Source of the DNA: Promethearchaeota archaeon
GTDB taxonomy: Archaea; Asgardarchaeota; Lokiarchaeia; Sigyniarchaeales; SOKP01
DNA length: 64,000 bases
Assembly: GCA_048940445.1 (NCBI GenBank)
Contig: JBHLON010000008.1
Span: 1-64,000, forward strand
Direction: 5' to 3'
Part shown: positions 46,530 to 53,297 of the stretch, piece after piece
Numbering within the stretch: position 1 is the first letter of the stretch
Layout of the letters: each line of letters starts with the position of its first letter
Position numbers and translations under genes: made by a program
Notes under the pieces: model-generated
Told to the model about the DNA's origin: nothing
Databases searched by the model: none
The model's input: the letters and a program-made list of their open reading frames with translations, nothing else

Positions 46530-47111
46530 ATGGGAAGAAGAAAAAGAAAGCAACAGACATATAAAAGAGTTAAGAAAGTACCAAAAATATTTACTTGTCC
46601 TTCATGTGGAGAAAAGTCAGTTAAGGTAGAAGGGCTTAGAAAAGGATTAATAGCGACAGTTAAATGTGGGTATTGTGGTTTGACAAAAGAGGTATTAGTC
46701 AATTCGATCTCAGAACCTGTTGATGCCTTTGGTGACTTTATTGATATCTATTATGCTGATCAAGAAATGCAACGATTAGAAAGAAGAGTTGAAAAGTTGA
46801 AAGAAGATAATGAATGGGGTGAATTGGCTCTATGTTACTCAATTTTGTCCGATTTAAGTAAAGTAAAAGCCGCAGAGTTATTAGAAGATGAGGAAAATGC
46901 AAATATAGATGAAATAAATAGTTGGAAGTTGAGAGCAGAAGAATTTAAGAGAAAAGAAAAAGATGCACTAAATCAATTGGATCTCCATGAGATGGAAAAA
47001 GGAATAAAGACTGATGAAGAATCCTTATTTTCTGAACATGACGAAAGTAGTATAAAAAAGGAAAAAAAAATTGAAGATATATTTGATGATCCTGGATTTC
47101 TGGAATTTTAA
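46530..47111 (+). CDS. elf1: Transcription elongation factor Elf1 with C-terminal extension
   Basis: MGRRKRK, FTCPSCG, CGYCG, SEPVDAFGDFID. Confidence 0.92.
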   Translation: MGRRKRKQQTYKRVKKVPKIFTCPSCGEKSVKVEGLRKGLIATVKCGYCGLTKEVLVNSISEPVDAFGDFIDIYYADQEMQRLERRVEKLKEDNEWGELALCYSILSDLSKVKAAELLEDEENANIDEINSWKLRAEEFKRKEKDALNQLDLHEMEKGIKTDEESLFSEHDESSIKKEKKIEDIFDDPGFLEF

Positions 47112-48975: not shown

Positions 48976-49440
48976 CTAACTTTGAGTTTTACGTTTATCA
49001 AATAGTTGTTTAAGTTCACTCATTATGGCACCTCTCAAACTTATGGGACTAGCTGGGCGGGGTTGTCCCGGAGCTCCTGGTGGGCCCCCAGGCGGTGGAG
49101 GTGGGCCTCCAGGGGGTGGGCGTGGACCTGCACCTGGAGATGTGGTAGGGGGTCCTCCAGGGGGAGGTGGGGCACTGCTAGGGGCTTTTGGGGCAGATAC
49201 AATTGGTGAGACTCCCCCTCCTGTAGATCTAACAGTTGCTAGATCATTATTTAAAGTGTTAACTCGTGTTTCCAAGGTTGATATTTTTTGATTTATTGAT
49301 GATAACGATTGATCTAATAAATCAGGAATTCTAAGAAGCATGGACATCATTCTTTCAACAATATCTCCGAAAGCATTCAACTTTTCTTCGAGAGGCGCCT
49401 TTCTAGTTTCTTGCATGAAATTTGCGAATTCTTCTGCCAT
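48976..49440 (-). CDS. Coiled-coil + polyproline + WH2-like helix protein (WAVE/WASH-like architecture)
   Basis: N-terminal heptads, PPPPGGPP repeats, C-terminal SLRGAIMSELKQ. Confidence 0.75.
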   Translation of the reverse strand: MAEEFANFMQETRKAPLEEKLNAFGDIVERMMSMLLRIPDLLDQSLSSINQKISTLETRVNTLNNDLATVRSTGGGVSPIVSAPKAPSSAPPPPGGPPTTSPGAGPRPPPGGPPPPPGGPPGAPGQPRPASPISLRGAIMSELKQLFDKRKTQS

Positions 49441-49581: not shown

Positions 49582-50205
49582 TTAACTTGATTTAGAGATC
49601 GAATTTTTCAAGATCAGCCATAATTCGTCGAGTTCTTTTCTAACCTCTAAAAATTGATGAATTTTTTTCAATAATACATCTCTAGCTATATCAAAATCTC
49701 GTTGATAATCTTCGAATTCAGCATCTAGAATTTTAAGTTTTTCACCCTCAATCAACTTGTTTTTCATCTTTTCTACATTTAAAGCCTTCTTAATTACTGC
49801 ACTTCTTTTACTGGCAAGTTCATTAAGAGCATCTGCAAATTCATTTTTTTTTTCAATGAAATATTCCTTCTTTAAGGCAAGATTCTTAATTGCATCTATA
49901 TATTTATTATTAGTATCAATATATTCATCATTTTTATGAATAATATCTTGATATAATCTTATCTCTTCTTCTTGTATATTTGATTTTTTTTCTCTGACTA
50001 AAGTTTGCATCTGTTTGATTACATCTCTAAAAGTTCTATTTAACATTTCTCTGGCGAGGTTTGCTTTAGTAAGATTTTCTGCGTACTTTTTTTGAGAGTT
50101 AATGAGATCGCTTTGGGCTTTAGCTAATTTTTTTATCTGATTAACTAACTCCTTTTCTGTTCTTGCTAATTCAAGTTCATCCTCATGTGTGATAATAGGA
50201 CTCAT
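49582..50205 (-). CDS. All-helical coiled-coil protein, BAR/IMD-like size
   Basis: 207 aa, almost free of Pro/Gly, three long amphipathic helices predicted by eye. Confidence 0.6.
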   Translation of the reverse strand: MSPIITHEDELELARTEKELVNQIKKLAKAQSDLINSQKKYAENLTKANLAREMLNRTFRDVIKQMQTLVREKKSNIQEEEIRLYQDIIHKNDEYIDTNNKYIDAIKNLALKKEYFIEKKNEFADALNELASKRSAVIKKALNVEKMKNKLIEGEKLKILDAEFEDYQRDFDIARDVLLKKIHQFLEVRKELDELWLILKNSISKSS

Positions 50206-51367: not shown

Positions 51368-52441
51368 TTAAGGTTTATATCTCAAAATGGCTACAATATC
51401 TCCTAAATCAATTATCTGCTGACCAGTGGGTTGTTCACTACTTAAGATGTGATATTTTCCTCCAGAATTTTCAATATCTGTCAAAACTTCTTCAATTTCA
51501 AGCTTTTTTTCTTTTGAGGTCCCTCTTATTAAAACATCTGCAATAAACAATTCTTCAATTACTCCATTCTTCGATAAATTAGCGATTTCTTTCATTCCAA
51601 TAGCGATTTTATCTGGATCAGTTGCTAAAATAGTAAGAATGTCCTCAATCTTTTCTGTTTCTTGTATCACTTTTACTTTTTCTTTCAAATCTTTTAACTG
51701 GGGAGATTTTAATATCTCAAATATCGCACTCTCGGTACCAGAACTAGCATGAATTGTAGTGATTTTTGAAAGATAATCTGGTTGTTTCTTTTCTTTAATA
51801 TAATTTAAAAATTTATCTTTTATATTTCCAGGACCACATAAAACAATTAAATTAATATTTATATTTTTTATATTCTCATCTAATAATTCATAGATATCAT
51901 TAAAAAATTCTTCATAAGCTTTGTTACGATGGATTTGTTCATACCTTTTTCCAGGAATTGTTTTTTTAATCGTAGCTATTTTTGTATGACTGAAGTTAGT
52001 AATCAGTACAGAATTCGCTAAACCAGTTTCGATAGCTATTATAAGTATAACAAAATTTGTTTCAAATTTTGAAGATTCTTTTAACCTTCTTATCTCGCTT
52101 TTTAACCAAGTGTCCTTTACAATATTTATGGTATTACCCACTTCAACATTGAAAGTATGATAGGCTCCAAATCTCACAAAATCTTCGGGTCCTTCATTGA
52201 TTGTACCTTTAATCCTTAATCTATTTGAAAATTCATGGAATGAAATAGATTCTACCTTTAATTTTATCCACATATTTTTTCTTTCTCCTTTAGTACCTTC
52301 CCTTAATACAACTCTCCTAGAAGTACGCATAGAAACATAATCATCCTTAGAAATAAGATTATAAAGTGTCCATAAATCATTTAATGTTTCAGTTTTAACA
52401 ACGACTTCTTGATTTTTTTTATCTATTTCAAGAACCTTCAA
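51368..52441 (-). CDS. pelA: Pelota (Dom34) ribosome rescue factor
   Basis: ETLNDLWTL, FHEFSNRLRIKG, GAYHT, IPGK, GPG, AILRY. Confidence 0.96.
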   Translation of the reverse strand: MKVLEIDKKNQEVVVKTETLNDLWTLYNLISKDDYVSMRTSRRVVLREGTKGERKNMWIKLKVESISFHEFSNRLRIKGTINEGPEDFVRFGAYHTFNVEVGNTINIVKDTWLKSEIRRLKESSKFETNFVILIIAIETGLANSVLITNFSHTKIATIKKTIPGKRYEQIHRNKAYEEFFNDIYELLDENIKNININLIVLCGPGNIKDKFLNYIKEKKQPDYLSKITTIHASSGTESAIFEILKSPQLKDLKEKVKVIQETEKIEDILTILATDPDKIAIGMKEIANLSKNGVIEELFIADVLIRGTSKEKKLEIEEVLTDIENSGGKYHILSSEQPTGQQIIDLGDIVAILRYKP

Positions 52442-52572
52442 ATATTAAGTCATCTTTCCTAAATTGAGTATTCCTAATTTAAATAAAGAATAAATATTTG
52501 AAAAGCTTACTTTTTTAAAGCTTATTTTAAACAATAAATAAAAAAAGGAAAATGAATCATAAATAAAGTGAA

Positions 52573-52725
52573 TTATTCTTTTTCTCCTAAGGCTTTTTTT
52601 ATTTTTTCAAGTTCTTCCATTCTTTTCTTCTTTTCTTCTTCCCTCTTTCTCAGTTCATCCACACTAACCTTTTGAAGAGTGACTCCTTTCTTAATCTCAT
52701 CTTGCAACTCTTTATCAATTGGCAT
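52573..52725 (-). CDS. 50-aa WH2/actobindin-like peptide, not in ORF track
   Basis: MPIDKELQDEIKKGVTLQKVSVDELRKREEEKKKRMEELEKIKKALGEKE; AAGGAG SD upstream; stands alone in the intergenic gap. Confidence 0.75.
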   Translation of the reverse strand: MPIDKELQDEIKKGVTLQKVSVDELRKREEEKKKRMEELEKIKKALGEKE

Positions 52726-52850
52726 TTTTCCACAACTCCTTTTGAATTGATAATTTCTGAGAAGAAATTATAATCTTAAATTTACAGATATTATAACAAT
52801 TTTTATTTATAAGTTTTAGTTTATAGAAAAATATTAAAATTGAAAGAAAA

Positions 52851-53297
52851 TTAAAGAATCAATTCCATCAAATAAGCATTTTCATGATTACTATAATAAT
52901 TCTCAATTTCTTGCACTATCTGGAATTCAAAGTTTTGATAAAGTCTTATTGCGATCTTATTATTTGTTTTTACATTTAAAATAACTTTATGGATATCTTG
53001 GTTCTTTTTTATCAATTCTAAGGTTGTTTGTAATAAGTAAGAGCCATAACCCATACTTTGATACTCTTGTTTTATTGAAAGATTTATTATATTAATAGTG
53101 TGTCTATTATCATGGATTGCGATTATATATCCTATTGTTTTAGATACTTTTTGGTTTTCTACCAACTTTAAGAATAAAGAATTACTTAGAATCAATTTTG
53201 TGATTGTTTGTTTTGAGAAAGATTCTGATTTGAAAACACTTTTCTCAATTTTCATAATTGTTTTTAGATCTTCTAAATTAACTCTCATTATTTGCAT
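52851..53297 (-). CDS. rimI: RimI/Ard1-type GNAT N-acetyltransferase
   Basis: YQSMGYG, LNVKTNNKIAIRLY, NYY...ENAYLM. Confidence 0.88.
   Translation of the reverse strand: MQIMRVNLEDLKTIMKIEKSVFKSESFSKQTITKLILSNSLFLKLVENQKVSKTIGYIIAIHDNRHTINIINLSIKQEYQSMGYGSYLLQTTLELIKKNQDIHKVILNVKTNNKIAIRLYQNFEFQIVQEIENYYSNHENAYLMELIL

Follow-up and report, generated by a model that had tools for sequence, protein, structure and literature searches.

The question raised by this locus is whether a 50-codon open reading frame (ORF) on the minus strand of a 64 000 nt stretch of DNA from a Promethearchaeota archaeon (the window) encodes a peptide that acts on actin. An earlier note, made from the letters alone, had read its product as an unannotated G-actin-sequestering peptide resembling WH2 domains, beta-thymosins and actobindin. 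The ORF and its translation were confirmed as first read, and the product, here called P0001 (Table 1), is probably a regulator of archaeal actin that has so far gone undescribed.

A conserved and translated gene

The P0001 gene lies on contig C94 of a 3.6 Mb genome that is 93% complete. The good Shine–Dalgarno (SD) sequence noticed earlier was found as AAGGAG, 10 nt upstream of the ATG, and the start, the stop, the SD and the T-tract 3′ of the stop are all conserved at 30 orthologous loci. This is a real gene that evolves under purifying selection: among the 30 orthologues, per-codon-position differences come to 0.13/0.07/0.38, with a pN/pS of 0.12. The gene order radical SAM–GNAT–peptide–pelota is kept in 30/30 orthologous loci, and a neighbourhood comparison showed that the linkage to pelota is absent in Promethearchaeum syntrophicum MK-D1 and in Ca. 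L. ossiferum Loki-B35 (B35). The most conserved intergenic block, across 30 loci from two genera, is a BRE-TATA-like element approximately 80 nt 5′ of the gene. Read from archaeal promoter anatomy, it is a putative promoter and, as this element is the best-conserved intergenic block, the gene is probably transcribed on its own. A sigma-70 promoter scan was set aside as the host is an archaeon. Elsewhere in the window, a 207-aa all-helical protein that belongs to no Pfam family is encoded between the radical SAM gene and a gene for a polyproline protein, and is syntenic with the peptide locus in L035, L045 and L046. A further gene encodes a 193-aa protein with an Elf1-type zinc ribbon and a long acidic C-terminal extension.

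Table 1. Positions of the P0001 gene, its signals and neighbours, and of related or accompanying proteins (positions without a prefix are in the window)
Feature	Position	Strand	Basis or remark
50-aa microprotein gene, P0001	52573..52725	-	ORF, homologues, codon-level selection; orthologue seen by mass spectrometry
WH2-like half, residues 5–20: amphipathic helix 5–13 (L7, I11), G14, L17-Q-K-V20	52666..52713	-	
C-terminal charged 28-residue helix, residues 22–49	52579..52662	-	near-invariant K34, R35, E38, L39; hydrophobic 42/46
Shine–Dalgarno AAGGAG	52736..52741	-	AAGGAG/AAGGTG-type motif at 30 orthologous loci
Putative own promoter: purine-rich BRE, then TTATAAATA TATA box	52804..52822	-	conservation, 30 loci
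Oligo-T tract, putative archaeal terminator	52540..52553	-	3′ of stop in orthologous loci; function inferred
Upstream neighbour, GNAT (RimI-like) acetyltransferase	52851..53297	-	Pfam; syntenic in 30/30 loci; context only
Downstream neighbour, pelota/eRF1-family gene	51368..52441	-	Pfam; syntenic in 30/30 loci; context only
207-aa all-helical protein	49582-50205	-	
154-aa polyproline protein	48976-49440	-	
193-aa Elf1-type zinc-ribbon protein	46530-47111	+	
Ten-repeat protein, Loki-B35	L033:2864-4327	-	56.41 kDa
Ten-repeat protein, MK-D1	L032:2812-4248	-	
Asgard profilin domain + 1–4 C-terminal units	L040:725-1531	+	also P0191, P0178, P0219
RHH domain + unit variant, own genome	C59:1265-1648; L048:1274-1645	+	also L041, P0207, P0212
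Stand-alone peptide GNAMCCOK_02436	L053:1495-1659	+	
Helical protein with embedded WH2-register stretch	L089:1180-1980	+	also L097

A protein search returned 203 homologues of similar length, 49–51 aa for the 120 matches listed. Of the 161 genomes of the class, 142 carried the family in six-frame searches, almost without exception as a single copy; among the high-quality genomes the count was 37/40. Within the class, a profile search placed all of these genomes in one order, all four families of which are covered, and found the family in 0/7 genomes of other orders. Among 239 other Asgard genomes there was one doubtful match to the profile. The family is thus limited to one order and does not extend across the Asgard archaea. 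Orthologues in the cultured organisms are DSAG12_00453 (MK-D1) and WP_371806818 (B35), both already called as hypothetical proteins. The description ‘unannotated’ thus stands for the function and fails for the gene, and the expectation that gene callers would easily miss it was wrong, as P0001 itself is also in the annotations as a hypothetical protein. In a literature search, mostly of sources other than subscription journals, we found no description of the family and no paper naming either accession.

Translation could be followed in the published B35 proteome which, with a formaldehyde-cross-linked Lokiactin co-immunoprecipitation (co-IP), was taken from the supplement of 10.1101/2025.11.30.690169. 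The Prokka tags used there were mapped by gene order and exact mass, which reproduced anchors of 270.50, 31.95, 12.98, 7.37 and 36.60 kDa. The stand-alone B35 orthologue is GNAMCCOK_02436, with neighbours that fit, and it was detected in 16/16 proteomes; an orthologue of P0001 is translated. Its Prokka start (GTG, 8.24 kDa) is apparently 14 codons early, and RefSeq and the orthologues favour a 55-aa form. Another small co-IP-enriched protein, GNAMCCOK_03900 (6.54 kDa), was considered as the B35 peptide and rejected; its likeliest identity is that of a zinc-ribbon protein of 57 aa encoded elsewhere. That the ORF is spurious or untranslated, as its shortness might suggest, is extremely improbable given the pN/pS value, the conserved start, stop, SD and promoter, the presence of the family in 142 genomes and the detected orthologue peptides, and this reading is refuted at the family level.

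The peptide and its likeness to known actin-binding families

The AlphaFold2 model of P0001 (pLDDT 91, pTM 0.49) predicts a short amphipathic helix (residues 5–13; pLDDT ~90, hydrophobic moment 0.62), an extended segment containing LxKV (residues 14–21) and a long helix (residues 22–49), without a globular fold. Hydrophobic residues occupy positions 7, 11, 17 and 20 in 90–100% of 69 diverse members (position 7 in 90% and position 11 in 100%), G14 and K19 are each found in 88%, position 8 is polar (Q in P0001; K in 49% and Q in 30% of the family) and the intervening positions of the N-terminal half vary. Conservation is strongest in the C-terminal helix (K34 97%, R35 98%, E38 100%, L39 98%). 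The charged helix described in the earlier note is thus present, but as the most conserved part of the peptide it is not filler. The box is LQKV in 78 and LKKV in 13 of 137 parsed members, and at the first basic position of LKKT most of the family carries Q, A or E. A five-residue, WH2-length linker joins helix to box in P0001 and in 123/137 parsed members, and a seven-residue linker is found in only 11/137, including MK-D1 and B35. As the linkers of the MK-D1, B35 and Harpocratesius orthologues are two residues longer (EIEEHDKSK-MAKV in MK-D1), one orthologous family spans both spacings. The longer linker is reminiscent of thymosin beta-4.

WH2 is defined by L36, L37 and I40 of WIP and its L46KKT box (PMC7407642). 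The N-terminal half of P0001 is in the same register: a helix of the 9–10-residue amphipathic type (residues 5–13) precedes the box, L7, I11, L17, K19 and V20 are conserved in the manner of WIP L36…I40…L46KKT, and the L17-Q-K-V20 box lies six residues past the Ile, the spacing of I40 to L46. The hydrophobic triad L36/L37/I40 is incomplete, with L7 and I11 present and Q at position 8. The WH2-like reading therefore held for the register of the N-terminal half but not for the curated model. P0001 falls below the Pfam WH2 (PF02205) gathering score of 23.1 bits, scans of its own genome with the Pfam WH2 and Thymosin models missed the ORF, 4/69 aligned members reach the WH2 model, weakly, and a six-frame WH2 search of 400 Asgard genomes gave no match above the cut-off. 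One full-length member that is 57% identical to P0001 over 42 aa (P0174, from a 797-bp contig with no taxon assigned) passes it, with 23.7 versus 23.1 bits.

When the family profile was used to query the PDB, the best match was an N-WASP WH2 construct (3M3N), aligned in register with an E-value of 3e-4 (profile A1), a score that is inflated by summed repeats and equalled by that of a de novo TIM barrel. With the wider profile A3 its E-value was 0.014. Further matches were 2VCP and MIM (2D1K). Searched against 1.84 billion proteins, the family profile retrieved multi-WH2 proteins (Pfam WH2 E-values of 3e-23 and 1.5e-10). A WH2-spaced pattern, which was written after P0001 had been seen and is not an unbiased test, matched P0001 alone out of the genome’s 38 404 small six-frame ORFs. 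The long ORFs (1.04 M residues) contained no match, and shuffled versions of P0001 matched at a frequency of 4e-5. Queried singly against the PDB, P0001 and the Harpocratesius orthologue returned generic helices only. Foldseek found no match and VIA-align returned generic helices with Z ≤ 4.2; for a peptide of two helices, neither outcome is informative. Matches to DUF3006, DUF7067 and DUF3921 were sub-threshold and helical, a match to the histidine kinase P0202 was a low-complexity false hit, and all were discarded.

With the WH2 domains of N-WASP, WAVE, WIP and MIM, P0001 shares an amphipathic helix in which L and I are spaced by four residues, a Gly and an L-x-K-V six residues past the Ile, and the family shares profile alignments in register with N-WASP and MIM as well as one member above the curated cut-off. 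P0001 differs from them in standing alone, in the polar residue in place of the second Leu, in a box that usually has one basic residue, in continuing directly into a conserved 28-residue helix with an invariant Arg and in its sub-threshold Pfam score; its actin binding is, moreover, a prediction. Like the beta-thymosins, it is a highly charged, non-globular, stand-alone chain of approximately 45–50 aa in which a helix, an LKKT-like box and a second helix follow one another, and both groups have single and tandem forms, the multi-repeat thymosins being ciboulot, tetrathymosin and actobindin. The nearest named ESM Atlas clusters are Thymosin (0.85–0.86), which is a lead only. Unlike in beta-thymosins, the linker of P0001 is short, and the second helix starts right after the box, is much longer and carries an invariant Arg that thymosins lack. 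The LKKTET/NPLP segment of thymosins is absent from P0001, and the longer EIExxDKSx linker of the MK-D1 and B35 orthologues resembles thymosin beta-4. Pfam Thymosin (PF01290) matched neither P0001 nor those two orthologues, and Thymosin is not among the 25 commonest Pfam families of the 69 members. Actobindin consists of two tandem thymosin-like repeats, and P0001 is one unit.

An LKKT-type box (LRRV, LKHV or LVDV) is also present in Asgard two-domain (2DGel) gelsolins, where it contacts actin (PMC9433394, 10.1101/2025.11.30.690169). In these it consists of four residues between gelsolin domains, whereas the 50-aa P0001 has no such flanking domains and is a full helix-plus-box module, of a type that is found free, repeated or fused to profilin. 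That four-residue box is all of the WH2 motif that has been described in Asgards so far. As several defining features of WH2 and beta-thymosins were tested and are absent from P0001, we file it in neither; it is a new family whose mode of action is probably similar to theirs. With the family restricted to one order, either homology or convergence could account for the likeness to WH2.

Tandem and fused units, and the Lokiactin co-IP

About ten units, approximately 46 aa apart, make up a protein of approximately 480 aa that is found in three genera (8 genomes), including MK-D1 and B35, and is absent from this genome and its family. In its model, helices are broken at each LxK[VI] box, the C-terminal helix of each unit continues into the N-terminal helix of the next, and there is no compact fold (pTM 0.17). 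All 8 of the B35 repeats that were checked in correct register carry an Arg 18 residues past the motif Leu. The profile of this protein retrieved only generic helices from the PDB. Spire, Cobl and VopL are tandem-WH2 nucleators. Like them, the ten-repeat paralogue strings WH2-like units together, and it co-purifies with actin, but its units are joined by continuous helices, and the comparison applies to the paralogue only. We regard the ten-repeat protein as the leading candidate for a tandem-WH2 nucleator or a binder of filaments.

Units are also fused to other domains. The profilin domain in the profilin–unit proteins matches Asgard profilin structures (5ZZB/5YED/5ZZA), and at least one of these fusions is from Promethearchaeota. 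Unit variants follow RHH domains and also LRR domains, neither of which has a known link to actin. Speculatively, the RHH fusions could be G-actin-responsive DNA-binding proteins.

The B35 ten-repeat protein is GNAMCCOK_04085 (56.41 kDa). It was enriched in the Lokiactin co-IP (log2 4.53, adjusted p 0.0021, 44 peptides, 366 spectra), ranking fourth among the non-contaminants and just above Lokiactin (4.44) and 2DGel1 (3.97), and its iBAQ was similar to that of 2DGel1. It is not among the regulators named by the authors (10.1101/2025.11.30.690169), and shares no word of more than three residues with either published antibody epitope. The background of the co-IP is broad, and the repeat protein is outranked by a probable GTP cyclohydrolase I. 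For the stand-alone orthologue, enrichment did not reach significance (log2 0.57, adjusted p 0.105; 5 peptides, quantified in 3/3 versus 1/3), and its mean in the proteomes was 18.4 versus 21.7 for Lokiactin, approximately 3 log2 units lower. Both known anti-Lokiactin epitopes, residues 22–36 and 96–110, overlap the surface contacted by LKKT and, if either antibody was used, this could have hidden a 1:1 peptide–actin complex.

Proposed function and place in Lokiactin regulation

This genome encodes a Lokiactin (C72) that keeps the equivalents of D24/D25, Y143, T148, E167, E334, I345, L346, L349, F352 and M355, and departs at E99 (Ser) and Y169 (Phe), in actin residue numbering. In the explanation that we prefer, P0001 would be a single-copy actin-monomer-binding peptide of WH2/beta-thymosin-like type that buffers the G-Lokiactin pool. 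Its helix 5–13 (L7, I11) would pack into the barbed-end cleft, L17-x-K19-V20 would dock by the acidic D24/D25 patch and helix 22–49 (R35, E38, L39, I42, L46) would extend in the direction of the pointed face, so that a single peptide, like thymosin beta-4, would block a monomer at both ends. Tandem units in the ten-repeat protein would line up several actin subunits, and a profilin-fused unit would add a second grip on actin. The WH2 register, the profilin fusions and the co-IP of the repeat protein point to actin as the likely partner, and we consider it fairly probable that P0001 binds Lokiactin in some way. That it serves mainly as a monomer buffer or sequesterer has somewhat less than an even chance. 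The abundance of the B35 orthologue is low for a bulk buffer, and the sub-threshold Pfam scores, the polar residue at the second Leu, the non-significant co-IP enrichment of that orthologue and the RHH and LRR fusions also speak against the monomer-binding reading.

One alternative keeps the WH2 mode of binding and drops sequestration, making the peptide a profilin-like barbed-end shuttle or a binder of filament ends or sides. The 46-residue tandem period suggests that the long helix may instead mediate dimerisation or extend to the next subunit. WASP-type WH2 domains and ciboulot, which favour barbed-end growth (PMC2879411), provide a precedent, and the WH2-length rather than thymosin-length linker in 123/137 parsed members, the run of each tandem C-terminal helix into the next N-terminal helix with no compact fold, and the low abundance of the stand-alone orthologue relative to Lokiactin are consistent with it. 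A single unit followed by a strongly conserved second helix is, however, the beta-thymosin layout (PMC7407642), the linker is two residues longer in MK-D1, B35 and Harpocratesius, and residues 22–35 have no clear heptad pattern; we regard this alternative as a minority possibility, on the unlikely side. It is more doubtful still that the partner is not actin, with P0001 a generic helix–linker–helix tether whose C-terminal helix binds another protein, for example one of the translation machinery in view of the neighbouring RimI-like and pelota genes, and whose likeness to WH2 is coincidental. The translation-related adjoining genes, the C-terminal helix being the best conserved part, the RHH and LRR fusions, the non-significant co-IP of the stand-alone orthologue and the failure of Pfam models to find P0001 would all suit such a tether. 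Set against these are the profilin fusions, the co-IP of a protein made entirely of repeats, the passage of P0174 over the WH2 cut-off, conservation at exactly the WH2 contact positions, the peptide gene’s own putative promoter and terminator, and the loss of pelota linkage in MK-D1 and B35.

Asgard actin regulation has been described as mainly the work of gelsolins and profilins (10.1101/2025.11.30.690169). If the monomer-binding reading is right, Asgard archaea would have a third class of regulator in the WH2/thymosin-like peptide, which occurs free, in tandem and fused to profilin. In cells that crawl by means of Lokiactin we know of no formins or Ena/VASP proteins, and the ten-repeat protein is a candidate nucleator for them. 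A broader proposal, which we think improbable, is that the unit and eukaryotic WH2/beta-thymosin are homologues, and that a so far unrecognised Loki actin toolkit reuses the unit as its actin-monomer module. Such a toolkit would comprise P0001 as free buffer, the ten-repeat protein as nucleator or filament ruler, the profilin fusions, RHH fusions as possible G-actin sensors in transcription and, encoded 3 kb away, a polyproline protein with a related terminal helix, and homology would make WH2-based actin control older than eukaryotes. Against it, the family is confined to one order with one doubtful match in 239 other Asgard genomes, and a motif of approximately 16 residues can converge. When WH2 modules arose is testable with a 50-mer peptide and the two cultured organisms, MK-D1 and B35.

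The 154-aa polyproline protein has a coiled coil, a polyproline segment and a C-terminal helix, SLRGAIMSEL, that is kept in its B35, MK-D1 and Harpocratesius orthologues, and its layout resembles the WASP/VASP type. In the LRR and RHH fusions, the same SLRxxIMxEL helix stands at the head of the WH2-like unit. In two genomes from one genus of another Asgard class, a helical protein with a 267–315-aa frame contains an embedded ELKASILSGVSLKK[VT] in perfect WH2 register, which may be an independent Asgard WH2 or a chance occurrence.
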